A stretch of DNA of 64,000 nucleotides. It comes from an uncultured Alphaproteobacteria bacterium (GTDB taxonomy: Bacteria; Pseudomonadota; Alphaproteobacteria; CAAHEQ01; UBA3637). Made by a program: the position numbers and the translations under genes. The stretch covers positions 6,428-70,427 of the forward strand of contig CALXUR010000005.1 of NCBI GenBank assembly GCA_944391735.1, given 5' to 3'. Within the stretch, counting starts at the first letter, position 1; every line of letters begins with the position of its first letter. Shown here one piece after another: positions 282 through 22,060 of the stretch. The notes below the pieces were generated by a model that worked only from the letters and a program-made list of their open reading frames with translations, ran no database searches and had not been told where the DNA came from.

Positions 282-1556
282 TTATCCAGTTAATTCTGCA
301 TTATAAGTGCTTGTTTCTGCATTATTTTTTGATATTTCGCCACTTTCTAGCAGAACAGCCTTTTTACCGGTCCAATCTTCCCATCTTTTTACGATAACAT
401 CGCAGTATTTCGGGTCCAATTCCATCAATCTTGCGACTCGACCGGTCTTCTCACAGGCGATTAAAGTCGACCCGGAACCGCTAAATCCGTCCAAAACAAT
501 CTCGCCAACCTTGGAACTGTTGTTGATAGCGCGCTCAACAAGCTCGACCGGTTTCATTGTCGGGTGCAGGTCATTGTGCTGTGGCTTGTTATATTCCCAA
601 ATGTCGGATTGGTTCCGGTCACCACACCAATAGTGAGGCTTGTCGCTCACCCAGCCGTAGAGGATAGGTTCATATTGCCGCTGATAGTCAGCTCGGCCCA
701 AGGTAAAGGTGTTCTTGGTCCAAATGATAAAGGTGGACCATTTGCCGCCGGCTTTCACAAATGCCGAGTAAAGGGTGTGAAGTTCAGACGAACTCATGCA
801 AACGTAAGCGGCACCTTTGCAATACATCAGCATATTGGTGCAGGCATCGTAAAGGAACTGCTCGAAATCTTCGCCCAGGTTGTCGTTCATAATGGTGCGG
901 CCATGGTTCGGACTGGTGTGATAACGGAGTTTGTCTTTCATCGTTGCGCCGTAGTTAACATTGTATGGCGGGTCGGTAAAGATCATGTCGGCCACGTCGT
1001 TTTGCATTAACTTTTTGAAATCGTCTATCATGGTCGTGTCGCCGCACATCAACCGGTGGTTTCCCAACTGCCAAACGTCACCATGCTTGGAGGTAGGTTC
1101 AACCGGGGCCTCGGGAACCTCATCATCTTCGGTGTTACCAGTGTCCTGAATTTCGCCAAAGTTCTCGAGGGCCTTTAGTTCATCATTGGTAAAGCCGAGA
1201 TTAGTTAAATCAAAGTCCTCGTCTTTCAGCTCGCCGATTTCCAATGCCAACATCTTTTCATCCCAACCAGCGTTGAGGGCGATCCGGTTATCGGCAATGA
1301 CCAAGGCTCGGCGTTGTGTTTCGGTTAAGTCCGGTAAGACGATGACCGGGACTTCTGTCAAACCTAAGCGTTGAGCCGCCAAAAGTCTGCCATGTCCGGC
1401 AATGATAACGTTGTCCGAGCCGATAAGGATCGGGTTGGTAAAGCCGAACTCCTTAATACTGGCCATAATCTGTGCTACTTGCTCATCATTGTGCGTGCGC
1501 GAGTTGCGTGCGTAAGGGATAAGTTTATCCACTGGAAAATTCTGTTGAAATTCCAT
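282..1556 (-). CDS. ParB-like N-terminal domain fused to N6/N4 DNA methyltransferase
   Basis: ParB-like LIPYARNSRTH...IIAGHGRLLAA; catalytic DPPY; HPTMKP and VLDGFSGSGSTLIACE SAM-binding motif (beta-class order). Start moved to MEFQQ at 1556 (RBS GGAG). Confidence 0.92.
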   Translation of the reverse strand: MEFQQNFPVDKLIPYARNSRTHNDEQVAQIMASIKEFGFTNPILIGSDNVIIAGHGRLLAAQRLGLTEVPVIVLPDLTETQRRALVIADNRIALNAGWDEKMLALEIGELKDEDFDLTNLGFTNDELKALENFGEIQDTGNTEDDEVPEAPVEPTSKHGDVWQLGNHRLMCGDTTMIDDFKKLMQNDVADMIFTDPPYNVNYGATMKDKLRYHTSPNHGRTIMNDNLGEDFEQFLYDACTNMLMYCKGAAYVCMSSSELHTLYSAFVKAGGKWSTFIIWTKNTFTLGRADYQRQYEPILYGWVSDKPHYWCGDRNQSDIWEYNKPQHNDLHPTMKPVELVERAINNSSKVGEIVLDGFSGSGSTLIACEKTGRVARLMELDPKYCDVIVKRWEDWTGKKAVLLESGEISKNNAETSTYNAELTG

Positions 1557-1589
1557 TTTTGCTCCTGAATTTGTGTGATAAAACAAAGG

Positions 1590-1691
1590 GTGACCACCCA
1601 AAATTACAAAGTGACCACCCAAAATTTTAATTCGTTGTTATAACTATTTGATATTACTTTATTTTTAGGTGACCACTGACCACCCAAAATT
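1590..1691. repeat. Three direct repeats TGACCACCCAAAATT (1591, 1612, 1677) plus a partial GTGACCAC (1669); cosB R-site-like
   Basis: Exact 15-bp copies read from the sequence, immediately downstream (minus strand) of the cosN-like site. Confidence 0.75.
1641..1653 (-). promoter_or_regulatory. IHF-binding consensus site
   Basis: Minus strand TATCAAATAGTTA matches WATCAANNNNTTR exactly and lies in an AT-rich gap between two of the repeats. Confidence 0.6.
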
Positions 1692-1819: not shown

Positions 1820-2866
1820 TTAGGCAACAAGTTTGTCTTCCTGAACCGGAACGATAGTCAACGTCTGCAAAGTCTTGCGGCATAATTTGGTGTAAATCGG
1901 TCGATCCAAGCCGAAGAACTTGATTAAAGTATTCGGTTTTTGGTTGCAAACAAGCGGACTATTCGTAACAACACCGTTCTTAACAGTCCGGATCAAGCCG
2001 CTGGGCAGTTCAGACTTGCCGATGCAAGATGAAAGGTAGACGAAGCATTCATCATTGTCGCCAAGATGTTCGGTTGCAAGGTAACGTGCGTAGACATTCA
2101 ATGTTAAGTCAGCCTTGCTCGGGTCCTTGGTCCATGGCGAACCACCGCCAATCGGGCAGGCGGTAGAATAGAAGTCGCACGCTAATTTCCGACCGGTAAT
2201 ACCACAGTCGGCAATGGATGAATGGAATTGATAAATGCCTGTGCCATTCACGATGATGGACTTTAGCTCTTGTCCGAGCGCATCAACGACAAATGGTTTG
2301 ATGTCTTCCGGTTCCAGCATAGGTATGGCAACTATGGCAGTCACTATGTCACCGGTTGCATCATCTATGGTAATTTGTGTTTTTATGTCGAGGCCAAGGT
2401 TAGATGATGTCTTTGCATGTTCATAAAGAGCATTATTTAGTTTGCGTGCCAGCCATAACTCGCGGTTGATTAAGCCCGGTCCTTTGCAGGCATAGCCCAC
2501 AAACACGCCTTGATCTCCCCATCCATCGCGCTCGACACCTTGGTTGATGTCGGCCGATTGGACCCCGATTTTGTTTATGACCTCTATATGTCGAACATCT
2601 ATGGCATAATTTTTCCATATACTAGAGTAATGTTCATCATAACCGATTTCTCGGAGAGCATTGCAGACATATGTTTCGATGTCTGACATATCTACCGAAC
2701 CTTTGACCTCACCACCGAGCATAACGCAGTTATCTTTGATCATAACTTCCACAGCGTAATGAACGCCGGGATCCTGCTCGATAAGTCTGTCTAAAATGTA
2801 ACTTGAAATGTAATCGGCTGTTTTATCCGGGTGGCCGATAGACACCGCTTCAGCTGTTTTCAGCAT
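1820..2866 (-). CDS. Divergent S-adenosylmethionine synthetase-like protein (prophage copy)
   Basis: MetK motifs GHPDK, GDQG, DCGITGRK and KDPSKAD. Canonical GAGDQG and GGGAFSGKD are replaced by GWGDQG and GGGSPWTKD. RBS AGGAG. Confidence 0.85.
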   Translation of the reverse strand: MLKTAEAVSIGHPDKTADYISSYILDRLIEQDPGVHYAVEVMIKDNCVMLGGEVKGSVDMSDIETYVCNALREIGYDEHYSSIWKNYAIDVRHIEVINKIGVQSADINQGVERDGWGDQGVFVGYACKGPGLINRELWLARKLNNALYEHAKTSSNLGLDIKTQITIDDATGDIVTAIVAIPMLEPEDIKPFVVDALGQELKSIIVNGTGIYQFHSSIADCGITGRKLACDFYSTACPIGGGSPWTKDPSKADLTLNVYARYLATEHLGDNDECFVYLSSCIGKSELPSGLIRTVKNGVVTNSPLVCNQKPNTLIKFFGLDRPIYTKLCRKTLQTLTIVPVQEDKLVA

Positions 2867-5160: not shown

Positions 5161-6873
5161 TTATGCTGGGTTAAAACCGAGTTCACGTCTTTGATCTTCC
5201 CATGAGTAAGGGAAGTGATCCCGGATTAGTCTTCGTGCAGTCAGTAATTTGGGCTGTCTACCTTCTATAATTGCCATTATGATGTCCGGAGCTAATGTCG
5301 TAAGCCTTAAGATTTGTCCCATGTATCCACGATCTAATTTTTCTCTTTTTGAGAGTTCACTGAGGGATATCTTTTGGTCATCCATAACTTGTTTATAGTA
5401 AAATGCCTGAGTAACAGCATTGTAAAGCTTCATATCTCTTTCGCATGTTTCACCACTTGGCTGATTAGGTTCAACAATCTGAACACACCCGCGTTTACGT
5501 CCGAACTTTATAGGATAACTTAATTCAAGGAGTTTTTCATTATAATGACTGTCTTTCTCAATTGCACCGCGTTCAAATAAGTCTGCGCTCATCGGCCTAA
5601 GTTTTATTATAATATGATCAGTATAAACGATGACTTTTTCAACAACTTCTGTAATAAACTCGTGTACAGTGGCTGGCTCGAAGTACTGGAAAGCTTGGCC
5701 AATATCCTGCACTATGTTGTGAACATCTGCACCATTAAAGTCTTCATTTTGCCGCTTAAATTCTTTCAGTAGTTCTTCCTGTAGTTCCGGTGTTTGAAAA
5801 ATCTTTTTAACCTTGTCTAAAACAAAATTATCAATTGCACCGGCTGGAATACTTCCAATTTGGCAATGGGCGTTATTTGCACCTTCTTTAACAGCCTTCA
5901 AGGAAGTGTAGTACTCATAATATTTATTACCTCTCTTACTTCGGGTTGGGGTCATTGTTCCACAACACGAGCATTCAAGTAGACCTTTCAACAAACTGTT
6001 TTTAACAGAGCGGCAAGGTCTGAATGCTGTTCCAATGTTGTCTTTTTTTACTTTTCTTGTTTCATCCCAAAGTTCCTGAGTGATGATCGCTTTGTGCTGT
6101 CCCTTATACAACTCTCCCTTATAAGGAACCATTCCAATGTATATCGGGTTATTAAGGATATTGGATATCATCGCATGGTTAAACATCTCACAGCCAACAA
6201 TTTTTCCTGTTTTTGTTTTCCATGTTTTCGGCTTGAAGCCTTTTTCGTTCAGATCTTCCACCGTTCTTATTTGAGATCTTGTTCTCTTATAGTCCTCAAA
6301 AATGAATCGTATTGTTTCAGCCTCAGCCGGGTTTATTACCAACTTTTTATTATTAACGTCATATCCAAGTGGGATAGCCCCACCAGTCCACATGCCTTTT
6401 TTCTTACTGGCCGCAATTTTATCGCGGACACGTTCCGCACCAAGCTCACGCTCAAATTGTGCAAATGACAGCAGAATATTTAATGTTAACTTGCCCATGG
6501 AATCGCAAGTATTAAAGTGCTGTGTCACAGATACGAATGAACAATTATTCTTTTCAAAAGTTTGAACTAATTGTGCGAAATCAAGGAGTGAACGTGTTAA
6601 TCGGTCTATCTTATAGACGACAATCATGTCCACTTTGCCTTTTTCTATGTCAGCCATCAACCTTTTCAATGCAGGCCTTTTTAAGTTACCACCGCTAAAG
6701 CCACCATCATCGTATCGATCAGGGAGGATTATCCACCCCTGGTGCTTCATACTCATTACGAAGTTTTCGCCAGCTTCGCGTTGGGCCTCAAGTGTATTGA
6801 ATTCCTTTTCAAGACCTTCATCTGTTGATTTACGAGTGTAAATTGCGCATCTTATTTGTTTTTGTTCTTCCAT
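5161..6873 (-). CDS. Large serine recombinase (resolvase + recombinase + Zn-ribbon-like domains)
   Basis: RCAIYTRKST catalytic Ser motif, YDDGGFSGGNLKRPALKRL, VYKIDRLTRS, and Cys pair CSCCG. Confidence 0.93.
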   Translation of the reverse strand: MEEQKQIRCAIYTRKSTDEGLEKEFNTLEAQREAGENFVMSMKHQGWIILPDRYDDGGFSGGNLKRPALKRLMADIEKGKVDMIVVYKIDRLTRSLLDFAQLVQTFEKNNCSFVSVTQHFNTCDSMGKLTLNILLSFAQFERELGAERVRDKIAASKKKGMWTGGAIPLGYDVNNKKLVINPAEAETIRFIFEDYKRTRSQIRTVEDLNEKGFKPKTWKTKTGKIVGCEMFNHAMISNILNNPIYIGMVPYKGELYKGQHKAIITQELWDETRKVKKDNIGTAFRPCRSVKNSLLKGLLECSCCGTMTPTRSKRGNKYYEYYTSLKAVKEGANNAHCQIGSIPAGAIDNFVLDKVKKIFQTPELQEELLKEFKRQNEDFNGADVHNIVQDIGQAFQYFEPATVHEFITEVVEKVIVYTDHIIIKLRPMSADLFERGAIEKDSHYNEKLLELSYPIKFGRKRGCVQIVEPNQPSGETCERDMKLYNAVTQAFYYKQVMDDQKISLSELSKREKLDRGYMGQILRLTTLAPDIIMAIIEGRQPKLLTARRLIRDHFPYSWEDQRRELGFNPA

Positions 6874-6884
6874 GGTTACTCCTT

Positions 6885-7283
6885 TTATTTATCTAATGCA
6901 AAAAAATACCGTCCGGATATCTTTCTACCGGTAATTTTTTTTGCTACTGCTGATAGCGAGGTATACTTCATTCCATTGTATTCAAAACCATCGCGTAGAA
7001 CTGTGACAATGTGTTCTACACCAAGATACTCGCGGACAATCCTTGTACCGGTTGGCGGTAAGTTGTTTCTGTTTTCCGGCGGAATGTACATGTTAGCTAT
7101 TAATTTTTGTTGGCTTGCCGATAGTCCTCCATAAGCGAGTTCTTGTATCTTATACGCTATGCGTGATACATAGAACTCTTTATTTAGGGAGAATGGCTTT
7201 ACATCAAAATACTTTTGCCATAAAGCCTGAAGCTCAACCAGTGACTTCCGCTCTAAAAGAGCTATTTGCATTGATACTTGCAT
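6885..7283 (-). CDS. DUF2924 family protein
   Basis: LQALWQKYF...RIAYKIQELAYGGL...PPTGTRIVREY.GVEHIVTV..DGFEYNG..Y.SLSAVAKKITG; typical partner gene upstream of this recombinase family. Confidence 0.85.
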   Translation of the reverse strand: MQVSMQIALLERKSLVELQALWQKYFDVKPFSLNKEFYVSRIAYKIQELAYGGLSASQQKLIANMYIPPENRNNLPPTGTRIVREYLGVEHIVTVLRDGFEYNGMKYTSLSAVAKKITGRKISGRYFFALDK

Positions 7284-16105: not shown

Positions 16106-17944
16106 TTATGTTAATTTTTCCGATAATACAAGCCATTTTTCTTCTAAATCATCGATTTGTGTATTTAATTGTCTTAACTCTTCTGTTATGGAGCGAATTT
16201 GATCCGGTGTCAATGGCGTTTCAAAAGAAGATTCAAGATCTTTTTTACGGATGCTTAATCGTTCTAACTCCCTTTCCAAAAGCCCCATTTGCGCCCGAAC
16301 CTGACGTATTTCGGCAGATGCGTGAGTCTTATAAACGGATTTTGTCTGGGACAGTGTTTTTGTTTTTTTATTATTTTGTGTTAAAGGCGCAGGTTCCAAC
16401 AATTGTTTTTTATAGGTCGCCAAATCACCATCGAACGGCCGACAAGAACCGTCTTGAACCAACCATAAATCCTCGGCCGCCAATTCGATTAAATTTAAAT
16501 CGTGGGCAATCAGGATAACACTGCCGTCATATGCGTTCAACGCATCAATCAAAGCCTCCCGCCCCTGAATATCCAAATGGTTCGTCGGTTCGTCCAAAAT
16601 CAAAAGAGCCGGTTCCCGTATTGTCATGCGCGCAAATAAAAGACGTGCTTTTTCGCCGCCGGATAAGTATTCGATACGTGTTAACGCCCGTTCTCCGGTT
16701 AATCCAAATCTGGCCAAATGTGAGCGCAGTTTTGTTTCCGTCGCCTCGGGCAACAAACGGGACATGAACAATAAAGGCGTTAACGCCAAAGGTAACTCTT
16801 CCGTTTGATGCTGGGCGAAATAACCGATTTCCAACTGTGACGACCGACGCACGGTTCCCTCCATCGGATCTAACCGACCGACAAGCAATTTTGCCAAAGT
16901 TGATTTACCGTTTCCGTTAGCCCCCATCAGAGCGATACGATCATGCGCCCCGATTGAAAAAGATAATTTTCTTAATACGGGGGAACCGTTATATCCGACG
17001 CTGACCTGATCTAACGTCATCAAAGGCGGTGCCAAACGAGCCGGTGGCGGAAATGTGAATTGAAAATCGGCTTTTCCCGGCAAATCGGGTAAATCTGCCA
17101 TTTTTTCCAATTGCTTTAAACGACTTTGAGCCTGCCTGGCTTTTGTCGCCTTATAGCGAAACCGGTCAACAAAAGATTGCAAATGCGCTTTTTTTTGAGC
17201 CTGATGCGCAATCTGTTTGGCCAATAAATCCAGTTGAGCGGCATACGTTCTTTGAAACGTATCGTAATTCCCTGTGTATAATGTCAATTTTTGCCGATCA
17301 AAATAAACGATATGATCACACAGTTCGTTTAAAATCACCCGATCATGGCTGACCAAAATCAAAGTACCGTCATATTTTTTCAAATGAGTCAGCAACCATA
17401 AGGTTGATTCCAAATCCAAGTGGTTAGTCGGTTCATCCAAAAGTAAAATTGTTGAGGGTTGAAATAAAGCTGCCGCCAAAGCCAACCGCATCCGCCACCC
17501 TCCTGAAAATTCAGCGACAGGGCGGTGCAGATCCTCATTCTTAAAACCAAGACCGTTTAAAATCCGGGCGGCTCGCGCCGGTGCGGCATCCCCATCATGC
17601 AACCGCCATTGCTCTAAAAGATCCGGACGCTCCATATCAGAAGCCTCGGTTAACTTTCGGGACAACTCGGCCAAGTCTGTATCTTGAGACAAGACGTAAT
17701 CCAAGACAGGGATATTCGTATTTAAAAACTCCTGTGCCACAGACACAATCCGCGCATTGTTCGGAAAAGAAATCCGACCGCTTTCAATATCCATTTCATG
17801 ACGAAGAACACGAAACAAAGTTGATTTGCCGCAACCGTTCAGCCCGACAACCCCCACTTTTTGACCATCCGATACATGAAGTGACGCGTGATCCAACAGG
17901 ACACGGGAACCGATACGAACCGTAACATCATTTATATCAATCAT
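16106..17944 (-). CDS. ABC-F family ATP-binding protein
   Basis: Two ABC cassettes (GLNGCGKST, FSGGWRMR, LLDEPTNHLD; GANGNGKST, LSGGEKAR), no TM segments, coiled-coil tail. Start at MIDI. Confidence 0.92.
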   Translation of the reverse strand: MIDINDVTVRIGSRVLLDHASLHVSDGQKVGVVGLNGCGKSTLFRVLRHEMDIESGRISFPNNARIVSVAQEFLNTNIPVLDYVLSQDTDLAELSRKLTEASDMERPDLLEQWRLHDGDAAPARAARILNGLGFKNEDLHRPVAEFSGGWRMRLALAAALFQPSTILLLDEPTNHLDLESTLWLLTHLKKYDGTLILVSHDRVILNELCDHIVYFDRQKLTLYTGNYDTFQRTYAAQLDLLAKQIAHQAQKKAHLQSFVDRFRYKATKARQAQSRLKQLEKMADLPDLPGKADFQFTFPPPARLAPPLMTLDQVSVGYNGSPVLRKLSFSIGAHDRIALMGANGNGKSTLAKLLVGRLDPMEGTVRRSSQLEIGYFAQHQTEELPLALTPLLFMSRLLPEATETKLRSHLARFGLTGERALTRIEYLSGGEKARLLFARMTIREPALLILDEPTNHLDIQGREALIDALNAYDGSVILIAHDLNLIELAAEDLWLVQDGSCRPFDGDLATYKKQLLEPAPLTQNNKKTKTLSQTKSVYKTHASAEIRQVRAQMGLLERELERLSIRKKDLESSFETPLTPDQIRSITEELRQLNTQIDDLEEKWLVLSEKLT

Positions 17945-17992
17945 TTCGGACGGAATCATATCAGAAAAAAGGACAAAAGGCAAGTTTATTCC

Positions 17993-18021
17993 TTGACCAA
18001 CCGTTTTTCGAATGGTATATA
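17993..18021 (+). promoter_or_regulatory. Sigma-70 promoter of the MATE-metK-like operon
   Basis: TTGACC-17 bp-TATATA. Confidence 0.55.
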
Positions 18022-18041
18022 ACCTTTGAAAGGAATAAAAG

Positions 18042-19406
18042 ATGTTATCTGCAGATGCGCACCGTTTAACAGACGGACATATAGCCCGCACACTTTTTAA
18101 GTTTGCCCTTCCCTATTTGGGCGCTAATTTCCTTGTGGCTCTTTATGGTGCAGCCGACGTTCTGATTGTCAGTTATTTTGCAAGTCCCGCAGCACTTGCG
18201 GCAACGTCCACGGGGGCGCAGGCCGTATTTACGATGATGGCTCTGGCAATCGGGTTAACACTGGGCGGAACCATTTTAATCGGGCAATATTTCGGTGCCA
18301 AAAAGGAAAAGGATGTTATTGAAACGATTCAAACGGTATTTTCCCTGTTTGCCATTACCGCTTTGATCGGTTCAGCCGTTATGTTCATTTTTGCCCGTCC
18401 GATCGCCGCACTTTTGGAAACACCGCCGGAAGCATTTCAAGGTGCCTGTCAATACATCATGATTTGCGGTGGCGGATTAATCTTTACTTTTGCTTATGAA
18501 TCGATCAGTGCCGTTCTTCGTGGTCTGGGAGATTCTAAAAATCCGTTAAAATTCATTGCGGCAGCTTGTTCAATGAATATCCTTTTAGACTTATTGTTTG
18601 TCGGGGGATTCAATTGGGGTGCCGCGGGTGCCGCAGCGGCAACCGTTATCTCCCAGGCATTCAGTGTTCTGGTGGCTGTTCTGTATTTACGACACCGAAA
18701 ATTTATCTTTGACTTTTCATGGAAGAGTTTCGGATTTCATTCTGAAAAAGCAAAAAAAATTTTACGTCTTGGTATTCCGTCCGCCATTCAACAAACCGTT
18801 ATTTTTACATCCTTTACCATTATGACCGCCATCGTGAACAAAATGGGAGTTATCGCTTCGGCGGCTGCCGGCATTACAACCAAAATAGACGGTTTTATGA
18901 TTATGCCGTCTTTGGCATTCGCCTCTGCCGTTTCGGTTATGACGGCACAAAACATCGGCGCACGCCAAATCAAGCGAGCAAAAGAAACATTCTATACCGG
19001 TTTTTTGATGGCTTTATGTTTTGGCGCACCGTCATTTTATATGATGTATCACCATGCGCCGACCGTGATGCGGCTTGTAACCGAAAATACCGATATTATC
19101 AACGCGGGTGCCGATTTTATGTTAGCCTATAGTCCCGATTGTATTTTGTTAAGCCTTGTTTTTTGTCTGAACGGTTTTTTAAATGGCAGCGGGCGAACCA
19201 CATTCACAATGACAAATAATTTAATATCCACTTTGTTCTTTCGGGTTCCCCTTATTTTCCAAGCAACAACTCTGTTTGCGGCAGGCTTTGCACTTCCGCT
19301 TTCTACGATACCGCAAATCATGTTATCTTTATTTTATTTTTACAAAGGATATTGGAAAAAATCCGTTATTGATAACCCAAGGAGAAAAAATGATCAAAAC
19401 AGCTGA
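18042..19406 (+). CDS. MATE family efflux transporter
   Basis: About 12 hydrophobic segments; LRGLGDSKNPL, NILLDLLFV..G.AGAAAATVISQ, AQNIGA. Confidence 0.92.
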   Translation: MLSADAHRLTDGHIARTLFKFALPYLGANFLVALYGAADVLIVSYFASPAALAATSTGAQAVFTMMALAIGLTLGGTILIGQYFGAKKEKDVIETIQTVFSLFAITALIGSAVMFIFARPIAALLETPPEAFQGACQYIMICGGGLIFTFAYESISAVLRGLGDSKNPLKFIAAACSMNILLDLLFVGGFNWGAAGAAAATVISQAFSVLVAVLYLRHRKFIFDFSWKSFGFHSEKAKKILRLGIPSAIQQTVIFTSFTIMTAIVNKMGVIASAAAGITTKIDGFMIMPSLAFASAVSVMTAQNIGARQIKRAKETFYTGFLMALCFGAPSFYMMYHHAPTVMRLVTENTDIINAGADFMLAYSPDCILLSLVFCLNGFLNGSGRTTFTMTNNLISTLFFRVPLIFQATTLFAAGFALPLSTIPQIMLSLFYFYKGYWKKSVIDNPRRKNDQNS

Positions 19407-20400
19407 ATTTGTTTCTTTAGGACATCCCGATAAAACGGCCGATTTTATTACCAGTTACATTTTAGACCGCTTGATTGAGCAAGATGAACTTGTTAAATAC
19501 GGTGTCGAAGTGATGATAAAAGACAACACCGTCGTGTTGGGCGGAGAAATTAACGGACATGTTGTTCTGAATGACCTGACAAGTTGGGTCAAAGAAGCGT
19601 TACGCCAAATCGGATATGATGAACACTACGCCTCTTTATGGGGAAATAACGCCGTCAACATCAACAAATTGAATGTTATCAATTTAATCGGGCTACAATC
19701 TCCGGAAATTAATCAGGGGGTCATACAAAACGGTTGGGGCGACCAAGGCGTGTTTGTGGGATACGCCTGTCAAGGTCCGGATTTTTTACCCAGAGAGTTA
19801 TCATTGGCGCGAAAGTTGGCAAATACATTTTACGAACAAGCCAAACAATCGGATTGTTTGGGGTTGGATATTAAGGCTCAAATCACATTGGATGAAGAAA
19901 ATCACATCGAAACGGCGATACTGGCCGTTCCGATGCGTCGGCCTGTTGACATTTCAAATGAGGAAATTGCCGCCGCATTAGGGGAACAACCTAAAAACAT
20001 CATTGTGAACGGAACAGGATCTTATACCACCCACTCTGCCGTTGCCGATTGCGGTATTACGGGACGTAAACTGGCATGCGACTTTTACTCAACCGCCTGT
20101 CCGGTCGGTGGCGGATCTCCATGGACAAAAGACGCCACAAAAGCAGATTTGACCTTAAATTTATATGCGCGAAAATTGGCAATTGACTTGTTACGGGAAA
20201 ATGACGAATGTTTCGTCTACCTGTCTTCGTGTATCGGCCGGAGTGAGTTGCCGAGTGCTGTTGTCAAAACAATTAAAAACGGGGTCATAAAGGTAAACAA
20301 TATTCAAATAAAACAAACCCCGAAAGACATGATTCAACAACTCGGTCTGAACAAACCGGTTTTCGCCGACATGTGCCGCACAGGTATTGTATTATATTAA
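19390..20400 (+). CDS. metK: Divergent S-adenosylmethionine synthetase-like protein (chromosomal copy)
   Basis: GHPDK, GWGDQG, DCGITGRK, GGGSPWTKD..KAD. Start at MIKT (RBS AGGAG) overlaps the MATE 3' end. Confidence 0.8.
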   Translation: MIKTAEFVSLGHPDKTADFITSYILDRLIEQDELVKYGVEVMIKDNTVVLGGEINGHVVLNDLTSWVKEALRQIGYDEHYASLWGNNAVNINKLNVINLIGLQSPEINQGVIQNGWGDQGVFVGYACQGPDFLPRELSLARKLANTFYEQAKQSDCLGLDIKAQITLDEENHIETAILAVPMRRPVDISNEEIAAALGEQPKNIIVNGTGSYTTHSAVADCGITGRKLACDFYSTACPVGGGSPWTKDATKADLTLNLYARKLAIDLLRENDECFVYLSSCIGRSELPSAVVKTIKNGVIKVNNIQIKQTPKDMIQQLGLNKPVFADMCRTGIVLY

Positions 20401-20783
20401 CGAGCGGATTGACGCACGTCGGATAAAATTTGTTTTTCCAATTTTTTTCTAAAAACAAGCTCTCGGCGATATGCGTCAATAGTCCCGTTAGACAAAGCCA
20501 AAATCGCCTCAAAGTTATCATTGGGTGAAACTTTGTTTCTCCGAACAAAGCCGCACTTTTCACATTGATGAACAATATACTGTTGACCGTTTTTGTTTTC
20601 CAAAGAAACTGCCAGCATTGTTCCTTTGCACGAAGATGCCCGATCTCCGGGGTTAATATCAACATGCTTACTGGATAAACACTCCGGGCAATGATTCGTG
20701 TACCCGTTTCCCTGCACATCCGTCGCACACACATCACAGGTAAAATCTTCCTTACGTCGTGTAAATTGAGCCGTCACAGTCAT
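20397..20783 (-). CDS. RNHCP-domain protein (Zn-ribbon)
   Basis: FTCDVC..GNGYTNHCPECLSSKHVDINPGDRASSCKG.M...HQCEKCG. Confidence 0.85.
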   Translation of the reverse strand: MTVTAQFTRRKEDFTCDVCATDVQGNGYTNHCPECLSSKHVDINPGDRASSCKGTMLAVSLENKNGQQYIVHQCEKCGFVRRNKVSPNDNFEAILALSNGTIDAYRRELVFRKKLEKQILSDVRQSAR

Positions 20784-22060
20784 TTCTCTTTCCTTTCATA
20801 GTCTCGAAAAATCAAAACATCCTTGGGTGGCAGGCAGACCTGAAGTTGAATATTTTGCTCCGTATCTTTTCGAGCCAACACACGCCCTTTTCGATACAGG
20901 GAAGCTAAAATGTCCCCTCGTTCAATCGGAATCGCCACATCCAAGGTTTGATACTCTTTTAACAGTTCCTGCTCTATCCGACGCAAGAAGGCATCAATTC
21001 CCTGCCCCGTTTTGGCAGATACGGGCCATTCGTTGTTAAAACGGGTCTTTTGATTCAAAATCCGTTGCTGTTCGGCTTCGTCCAATAAATCAATTTTATT
21101 TAAAACCTCAATCAACCCGGTATCAACTTTATCTTTAACTCCCAAATCGGATAAAACTGACTCCACATCCTTTTTTTGCGCAACCGTGTCAGGATGTGAA
21201 AAATCACGCACATGAACAATAATATCTGCTTCCAATACCTCTTCCAAAGTGGCACGGAACGCCATCACCAATTCCGTCGGCAAGTCAGACACAAAACCAA
21301 CGGTATCGGATAAAATGACATCTGTTCCACCGGGCAGCCGCACATGTCGCATTGTCGGATCTAAGGTTGCGAACAGCATATCTTTGGCTAACACATCCGC
21401 TTTTGTCAACCGATTAAACAACGTTGATTTACCGGCATTTGTATAACCGACCAGGGCGACTATCGGATACGGAACCCGACGGCGGGCACGACGATGTAAC
21501 TCCCGCTTTTTTTTAACCTCGGACAACTCTTTTTTGATTTTGATAATATCATCATCAATTAAGCGACGATCTAACTCTATTTGTGTTTCCCCCGGACCTC
21601 CTAAAAAACCGGAGCCGCCCCGCTGCCGCTCCAAGTGCGTCCAGGAACGTACCAAACGAGAACGCGCATATGTTAAATGAGCCAGTTCAACCTGTAAAAC
21701 CCCTTCCTTTGTGCGTGCCCGCTGTCCGAATATTTCCAGAATCAAGGCAGTCTTATCAATCACCTTTGTGTGCCACACCTTTTCCAAATTACGTTGTTGA
21801 AGCGGTGATAAAACACAGGCCATAATCACGACATCCACCTGATTATCACGAATAACGGGCACCAGACGTTCAATATTGCCTTTTCCCAAATAAGCATTGG
21901 CTTTAATTTCACGCAAAGCAACCGTATCTTGAAAAACAACGTCCAGATCAATTGCTTTTGTTAAGGAAACAGATTCCGCCAAACGGGCTTCCGGAGATCT
22001 GGAAAAACCCCCTTCCTGTTTCAAATACGGTAAAATGACAATAGCTTTTTGTCGTGTCAA
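20780..22060 (-). CDS. hflX: GTPase HflX
   Basis: GPGETQIELDRR, VGYTNAGKSTL, LFATLDPT, DTVGF, NKID. Confidence 0.96.
   Translation of the reverse strand: MTRQKAIVILPYLKQEGGFSRSPEARLAESVSLTKAIDLDVVFQDTVALREIKANAYLGKGNIERLVPVIRDNQVDVVIMACVLSPLQQRNLEKVWHTKVIDKTALILEIFGQRARTKEGVLQVELAHLTYARSRLVRSWTHLERQRGGSGFLGGPGETQIELDRRLIDDDIIKIKKELSEVKKKRELHRRARRRVPYPIVALVGYTNAGKSTLFNRLTKADVLAKDMLFATLDPTMRHVRLPGGTDVILSDTVGFVSDLPTELVMAFRATLEEVLEADIIVHVRDFSHPDTVAQKKDVESVLSDLGVKDKVDTGLIEVLNKIDLLDEAEQQRILNQKTRFNNEWPVSAKTGQGIDAFLRRIEQELLKEYQTLDVAIPIERGDILASLYRKGRVLARKDTEQNIQLQVCLPPKDVLIFRDYERKEK

Follow-up and report, generated by a model that had tools for sequence, protein, structure and literature searches.

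The 64,000-nucleotide (nt) window analyzed here, a stretch of contig CALXUR010000005.1 from the genome of an uncultured alphaproteobacterium, carries two genes for a short and divergent form of MetK, the S-adenosylmethionine (SAM) synthetase (methionine adenosyltransferase, MAT). One of them lies in a prophage at the beginning of the window, which also holds DUF6362 and DUF6291 genes, and the other, the main subject of this study, starts within the 3' end of a MATE-family transporter gene (Table 1). The latter copy is not within a phage or prophage genome: it is flanked by genes for ABC-F, MATE, RNHCP-domain and HflX proteins and by hfq, and approximately 12 kb of cellular genes (rubrerythrin-like, GNAT, epimerase, UDP-glucose dehydrogenase, HAD, NUDIX, prolyl aminopeptidase, and ABC-F) separate it from the recombinase end of the prophage at about 7.3 kb. 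Its GC content (0.436) and GC content at third codon positions (GC3, 0.445) are in line with those of the neighboring genes. Judged by its sequence, it is the one gene of its genome, intact and outside a prophage, that qualifies as a candidate methionine adenosyltransferase.

Table 1. Features of the 64-kb window discussed in the text (positions are those of the window)
Feature	Position	Strand	Remarks
Prophage ParB-N6/N4 DNA methyltransferase gene	282..1622	-	SAM consumer adjoining the phage metK
Prophage short metK	1820..2866	-	348 amino acids (aa), GWGDQG/GGGSPWTKD type
Leader motif GATTTA..TTGTCC..GGACTAAA	2882..2916	-	Before the prophage metK; the chromosomal copy lacks it
Prophage serine recombinase and DUF2924 genes	5161..7283	-	Mark the prophage end nearest the chromosomal metK
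ABC-F ATPase gene	16106..17959	-	Divergent from MATE
Candidate promoter TTGACC-17 nt-TATATA	17993..18021	+	Divergent ABC-F/MATE intergenic region; sequence resemblance only
MATE-family efflux transporter gene	18042..19406	+	Last 17 nt overlap the metK start
AAGGAG ribosome-binding site	19379..19384	+	5 nt before the metK ATG, inside the MATE 3' end
Chromosomal short metK-like gene	19390..20400	+	Uninterrupted 336-codon open reading frame (ORF), 336 aa, GWGDQG/GGGSPWTKD type
RNHCP-domain protein gene	20397..20783	-	Convergent with metK, 4-nt tail-to-tail overlap; downstream neighbor kept in four genera
GTPase gene hflX	20780..22060	-	Conserved synteny anchor; order past metK is RNHCP, hflX, hfq

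Both window proteins contain the domains S-AdoMet_synt_N, S-AdoMet_synt_M, and S-AdoMet_synt_C, all above the Pfam gathering scores. With the MetK equivalog model TIGR01034 they reach 162-174 bits, below its cut-off of 309.4; their best family match is the PHROG family phrog_1569, annotated as "unknown function" (225-236 bits for the two proteins; best 236 bits, E = 1e-69), and NCBI names the relatives only "methionine adenosyltransferase domain-containing protein". The signature motifs of MetK, GAGDQG and GGGAFSGKD, are replaced by GWGDQG and GGGSPWTKD, in which the functional D and K are kept. Sixteen positions of E. coli MetK were checked (H14, D16, K17, E42, E55, Q98, D118, D163, K165, F230, D238, R244, K245, K265, K269, and D271; numbering via PDB alignment), which we take to be the metal, triphosphate, methionine, and adenine binders. 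All of them are kept in the alignment, 15 as identical residues and F230 as Y. Both the catalytic positions and the two motif tryptophans are invariant across 31 members of the clade. Further derived features set the clade apart: VDFY for VDTY, NGTGxYxxHS for NPTGRFVIGGP, eight residues inserted behind GYDE, a central domain shortened by deletions, and a C terminus that has lost the YGHFGR tail. The AlphaFold model of the chromosomal protein has a predicted local distance difference test (pLDDT) score of 86.4 and a predicted template modeling score (pTM) of 0.88, and the top 50 Foldseek matches to it in PDB are all SAM synthetases (probability 1.00, TM 0.72-0.83). From these residues and the predicted fold, the 336-aa protein is very probably an active methionine adenosyltransferase.

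The possibility that the motif tryptophans alter the chemistry, toward another nucleotide or amino-acid substrate or toward resistance to a phage or host MetK inhibitor, was also considered. Both PROSITE-type signatures are rewritten clade-wide, the equivalog score is half of the cut-off, and some members of the clade, 660-730 aa long, may be fused to other domains. Nevertheless, a changed function seems highly improbable to us, given that the residues binding the metal, triphosphate, methionine, and adenine are all kept, that the short type and the canonical metK are mutually exclusive in the family (see below), and that one relative adjoins a methylthioadenosine/S-adenosylhomocysteine (MTA/SAH) nucleosidase gene, while most copies have a candidate SAM-type leader. 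As to the long GWGDQG-type proteins (P0004 and similar designations denote protein clusters; these are P0024, P0030, P0031, P0036, and P0042), their MetK halves are matched in two stretches, and they may be fusions or domain insertions.

The identity counts of the two window proteins given in the earlier note on this DNA (39/50 N-terminal residues, 111/169, about 60% overall) were reproduced exactly by a global alignment, which extends to 208 identical residues of 335 (62-63% overall); BLASTP reports 208/331 (63%, E = 1e-158). The two genes are 62% identical in DNA, and their third codon positions agree at only 44% of the identical residues. Since synonymous sites are saturated, a recent duplication of the two copies is excluded, just as had been argued from their divergence. 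Mis-binning cannot explain the pair either, because both copies are on one contig. Moreover, the shared motifs and the tree placement assign both proteins to one unusual MetK clade, as was proposed, and not to unrelated ones.

A canonical metK, for which the earlier note suggested a search, was found neither in the genome of the window nor in its congeners, nor in most of the family. In the former (1.0 Mb, 20 contigs, 75% complete) no protein exceeded the TIGR01034 cut-off, and there were only three short-type matches, the third being a truncated copy of 231 aa that ends in ...RKLACDF at the stop codon and lies outside the window (contig C1:27001-27699). The nine congeners (88-100% complete) likewise carry no type but the short one. 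Among the 80 genomes of the family, representing 16 genera, 53 contain only the short type, nine only the canonical type, 18 neither, and none both; the chance of zero overlap under independence would be 2e-5, these genomes being phylogenetically non-independent. The archaeal-type MAT (PF01941) is absent from the genome of the window and from ten tested relatives that lack MetK. The genome of the window has five radical-SAM genes and therefore needs SAM; a tblastn search of it yielded no homologue of the MTA/SAH nucleosidase, a negative that carries no weight at 75% completeness.

In the tree of HflX, used as a stand-in for the species tree, the genera with canonical metK (g5, g11, and g14) are on one side of a branch with support 99, and the short-type and MetK-less genera are on the other, which fits a single displacement event. 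Outside the family the short type is rare. A class-wide sample of 401 alphaproteobacterial genomes contained it in six, four of which belong to this family and one each to two other small-genome families, whose remaining members have canonical metK. In a published account, the Rs-D84 group is a lineage of gut bacteria with reduced genomes (PMC12306168).

Among 1.8 billion representative proteins searched, about 34 full-length clusters (at 50% identity) have the GWGDQG motif, and the matches beyond them were MetKs with canonical motifs. In a careful maximum-likelihood tree the GWGDQG clade, which includes the phage-borne P0004, P0006, P0007, and P0022, has support 100/100; within it, the alphaproteobacterial short clade is supported at 97/98, and its grouping with the sister P0004 at 99/95. 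The canonical MetKs of Alphaproteobacteria, including those of the family itself (genomes G022 and G013), form a separate clade (99/99). All six outgroup clusters with readable context are on phage or phage-like contigs; the contexts of two more gave no information. The contigs of P0004, P0006, P0007, and P0022 have terminase and portal genes, and all of these clusters except P0007 adjoin N6/N4 or C5 DNA methylases. For P0012 and P0013 the contigs are phage-like, with no terminase or portal gene called on them; P0012 adjoins a ParB-methyltransferase. In P0004 and P0006, metK overlaps the methylase gene that precedes it and is leaderless. In the phages, the short MetK presumably supplies SAM for methylation of phage DNA. 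The MetKs of Streptococcus and Evtepia phages were rejected as the closest phage relatives, as they have canonical motifs and fall into a different clade. The P0013 contig (locus L148, GCA_902730075.1), 279 kb long, encodes a prohead-protease-like Peptidase_S77, GTP cyclohydrolase, an AAA ATPase, and a fragment of the DNA polymerase III alpha subunit, and may be a very large phage genome.

The position of the chromosomal copy is itself conserved. In genera g1, g2, g8, and g10, metK is directly upstream of RNHCP-hflX, and the 21 syntenic copies group together as a single clade (SH-like approximate likelihood ratio test, SH-aLRT, 94 in a quick tree; 93/75 in the careful tree), where the window copy groups with those of genomes G003 and G004 at support 99-100. 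The membership in this clade, the synteny over four genera, and the neighbor-like GC and GC3 indicate that the chromosomal copy is of old standing and vertically inherited, its place beside RNHCP-hflX being fixed in at least four genera.

The coupling to the MATE transporter, emphasized previously, is not borne out as a general feature. The direct junction is limited to the window species (G000), G003, and G004; in the sister species the MATE gene abuts RNHCP without metK, and the other genera differ. In genus g8, MATE and metK are separated by an EamA transporter gene, which is on the opposite strand; in genus g2 an M23-peptidase-like gene separates them, and in genus g10 a SpoU methylase gene is immediately upstream of metK. 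As the intervening and upstream genes differ among genera, a functional MATE-metK link was rejected, and we read the overlap as an incidental, lineage-specific compaction and not as a functional module. The EamA/DMT-family gene of genus g8 (L024:4971-5882, minus strand) is arranged head to head with the chromosomal short metK, and its homologue, 37% identical, is found on contig C3 of the window genome at about 61-62 kb. The SAM transporters of rickettsiae and chlamydiae are in the same superfamily as EamA/DMT. Finally, in G003 (locus L100, contig C67) a serine recombinase gene, whose product is 83% identical to that of the window, and a DUF2924 gene are located about five genes upstream of ABC-F in the ABC-F-MATE-metK region, which suggests that the prophage type of the window integrates recurrently near the chromosomal metK locus.

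A sigma-70 promoter had also been proposed for the MATE-metK unit. Its letters are indeed in the sequence (TTGACC at 17993-17998 and TATATA at 18016-18021); the resemblance is all that stands of the claim, since a consensus promoter scan of the region did not list this pair, and the eight promoter-like sites there are not enriched over shuffled sequences (5.2 +/- 2.0). The pair is a plausible promoter of MATE and metK. The mechanically called ORF of ABC-F (16106-18091, minus strand) has a GTG start at 18091 that overlaps the MATE start, and its family match begins at about residue 45; its true start is probably near 17959, leaving a divergent intergenic region of about 80 nt.

No intergenic leader precedes the chromosomal metK, the gene start lying within MATE. 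At the gathering threshold no Rfam family was reached in the whole window, and at a permissive threshold the region 17900-19420 gave chance matches only, nothing riboswitch-like. Thus the absence of a riboswitch-like leader, noticed earlier, is borne out by both the Rfam scan and the lack of the leader motif described below. Leaderless and overlapping the MATE gene, metK is probably transcribed from the promoter of MATE, with no feedback by SAM.

Most other short metK genes do have a common conserved 5' leader, ...GGATTTA(A/G)NCC..CTTGTCC..GGACTAAA..AGGAG.., as revealed by a survey of the 95 nt upstream of metK in loci L019-L098 and L119-L138. It was found before none of the 21 genes of the syntenic clade, 39 of the 46 in other, mostly cellular contexts, and four of the 16 in prophages, including the window prophage; the latter is its single occurrence in the window genome. 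Among the sampled neighbors in the other contexts are DnaJ-like, AcrB, thioredoxin-reductase-like, and glycosyltransferase genes; in L077 the short metK adjoins an MTA/SAH nucleosidase gene that scores above its equivalog cut-off, and in L087 it adjoins a phage-type integrase gene. The conserved leader is a candidate SAM-type riboswitch; at a permissive Rfam threshold the prophage leader matched SAM-V only, at a sub-threshold 12.9 bits (E = 10). The leaderless state of the chromosomal copy is a derived peculiarity of the RNHCP-hflX sublineage. A second recurrent leader, TCCTTT(C)...(G)AAAGGA, with the potential to pair with the ribosome-binding site, occurs in genus g2 and in L021, L022, L027, and L074, and a third, CCTTTGGTT...AACCAAAGGAG, occurs in L060, L068, L084, L087, and L088. 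In several prophage copies a hairpin and a T-run just before the ribosome-binding site take the place of the common leader.

Taken together, these data make it likely, in our view, that a phage-type MetK took the place of the canonical enzyme early in the history of the family, and that the short gene is the working SAM synthetase, inherited chromosomally ever since. The ancestor of most genera of this reduced-genome family would have acquired a phage-type metK and lost the canonical one. The host would then have placed the acquired gene under a SAM-type leader, which most cellular copies carry and the RNHCP-hflX lineage does not. In the window species and two relatives, metK would have slid into the MATE transcription unit, with its own ribosome-binding site and a 17-nt overlap. 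Some prophages, including that of the window, may later have captured the host allele together with its leader, and redundant copies may have been swapped or lost between genomes, the sister species having lost the RNHCP-hflX copy and kept another. Whether the host had domesticated a phage gene or the phage had captured a host gene was left as an alternative in the earlier note; both seem to be true at different depths. Phage-to-host transfer followed by displacement is indicated at the clade level, because the whole clade groups with phage-borne genes, and later host-to-phage capture is indicated for the prophage allele of the window, because it has a host-type leader and nests among cellular copies.

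More tentatively, it is possible that the family swapped its MetK for a phage-derived xenologue whose pool is still shared with prophages, with one or two chromosomal copies per genome at alternative loci, reciprocal loss between sister species, and re-capture by prophages of the host allele with its leader. If so, a prophage copy could be the sole SAM synthetase of MetK-less relatives, and lysogeny would be metabolically consequential.

Several observations from the tree, from the family, and from the genus weigh against the early displacement by a phage-type enzyme. Deep branches inside the alphaproteobacterial short clade are weakly supported, the clade is on a long branch (0.8-1.5 changes per site), its basal members are cellular and not phage copies, and no more than six outgroup contexts could be read to judge the direction of transfer. 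The short type might instead be a fast-evolving, vertically inherited alphaproteobacterial MetK of a genome-reduced lineage, from which all phage copies were captured. Such an origin would agree with the riboswitch-like leader of the basal cellular branches and with the four of 16 prophage copies that have a host-type leader and nest among cellular copies; accelerated protein evolution is, moreover, frequent in genome-reduced lineages. It is unlikely, however, as the canonical MetKs of the family itself (G022, G013) are far from the short clade and group with the other alphaproteobacterial MetKs (99/99), as the derived motifs and indels are common to the leaderless phage-borne P0004 and P0006 from unrelated samples, and as the short type occurs in so few genomes of the class-wide sample (6/401).

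At the level of the family, the 18 MetK-less genomes out of 80 must be accounted for. Several of them are 97-99% complete (they include G020, G043, G071, G079, and G081), most belong to the genus with the smallest genomes, and the five tested keep 5-8 radical-SAM genes. They must obtain SAM by another route and are candidate SAM scavengers. Members of the family may therefore be able to take up SAM from outside, and the window metK may be non-essential. A 420-aa ORF at the metK position of the MetK-less G020 was rejected as a replacement enzyme, being a spurious frame in a GC-rich stretch.

Within the genus, the metK locus beside RNHCP-hflX is not stable. The site is without metK in four congeners, namely G007, which is the sister species (support 99; 86% identity in HflX), G005, G009, and G001. 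No metK remnant is present in the MATE-RNHCP gap of G007 (46 nt), G005, or G009 (18 and 25 nt, respectively), nor near RNHCP-hflX in G001, where another gene is inserted between RNHCP and MATE. Each of these four genomes has an intact metK at another locus, and all ten genomes of the genus retain at least one intact short metK, which argues for selection to retain the MetK function. In G007 the intact, leader-bearing metK is between a low-molecular-weight (LMW) phosphatase gene and Nudix/clpB genes (L119, contig C3). This locus is collinear with the region 20.9-36.1 kb of contig C1 in the window genome, where only the truncated copy remains (L006), behind prophage-type DUF6291 and DUF6362 genes. 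The window species and its sister have thus kept opposite members of a redundant metK pair. By the LMW-phosphatase/metK locus, in contig C1 at 11.5-20.9 kb and in L126 (G009), there are HsdM/HsdS/HsdR type I restriction-modification genes and an M48-like gene; this is a further SAM-dependent system near a metK copy.

This turnover, together with the MetK-less genomes that keep radical-SAM enzymes, could be taken to mean that a mobile element left the chromosomal copy behind, as a remnant that adds SAM capacity but is dispensable to an organism that mainly imports SAM, as Rickettsia and Chlamydia do: neither the sister species nor three further congeners have metK at this site, copies are at several loci within one genus, and the truncated third copy shows decay. 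We consider this quite unlikely. An intact copy is kept in ten out of ten genomes of the genus, and an empty site always goes with another intact, leader-bearing copy, that is, with redundancy and not with dispensability. In addition, the locus is retained with its cellular neighbors over four genera, the catalytic residues are invariant, and no SAM transporter was identified in this analysis.

MetK is among the most conserved bacterial enzymes. The best reading of our data is that a bacterial lineage relies on a divergent, phage-affiliated MetK subfamily for its only SAM synthetase. Standard models leave this short subfamily unnamed: it is below the NCBIfam MetK cut-off, "domain-containing" at NCBI, and of "unknown function" in PHROGs. 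Consequently, model-based metabolic reconstructions may call these gut Alphaproteobacteria SAM auxotrophs, which would be an error if the enzyme is active. Should the phage origin be true, the family provides a clean case of a phage auxiliary gene turned into a host housekeeping gene family-wide, with the exchange continuing. The tryptophan in each signature motif defines a compact MAT variant of about 335 aa, which is of interest for its kinetics, its product inhibition, and its sensitivity to phage proteins that target SAM.

Comparison with known systems sets the window protein apart at several levels. The canonical bacterial MetK (TIGR01034; E. coli, PDB 1RG9, 1P7L, 7LL3) has the same three-domain fold (TM about 0.8) and the same catalytic and ligand residues, and the loop region QSPEINQGV is kept in the window protein, although the two are only 27-30% identical and differ in length (about 384 aa versus 336 aa). 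The best match among solved structures in both sequence and fold is the "unusual" MetK of Campylobacter jejuni (PDB 4LE5; 29-30% identity). In the HMMER alignment, the latter has GAGDQG and GGGAQSSKD, in contrast to GWGDQG and GGGSPWTKD here, and it is longer (388-430 residues).

Reduced genomes of Rickettsia and Chlamydia have lost canonical metK or have it in decay, and import SAM. The family studied here is likewise partly MetK-less (18/80 genomes), but the window organism keeps an intact synthetase of foreign type, and a SAM transporter was not identified in this analysis. In Streptococcus, the metK of prophages (Javan phages; 12/111phiA) is reported to have phenotypic effects (PMC8223999). 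Like the prophage copy of the window, the MetKs of these phages and of Evtepia phages are shortened, belong to temperate phages, and are located beside DNA methyltransferases. They are, however, about 33% identical to the window protein, keep GAGDQG and GGGAFSGKD, and fall into a different clade. Furthermore, the hosts of these phages retain a canonical metK of their own (the MetK of the S. agalactiae host serves for comparison in PMC8223999), whereas the host described here is without it. The closest counterparts are the phage MetKs of the phrog_1569/GWGDQG type (P0004, P0006, P0007, P0022), which belong to the same subfamily, have the same motifs, are 45-53% identical to the window protein, and have methylase or terminase neighbors. 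These are leaderless phage genes, whereas the chromosomal gene of the window has cellular neighbors and a position that is conserved from genus to genus.

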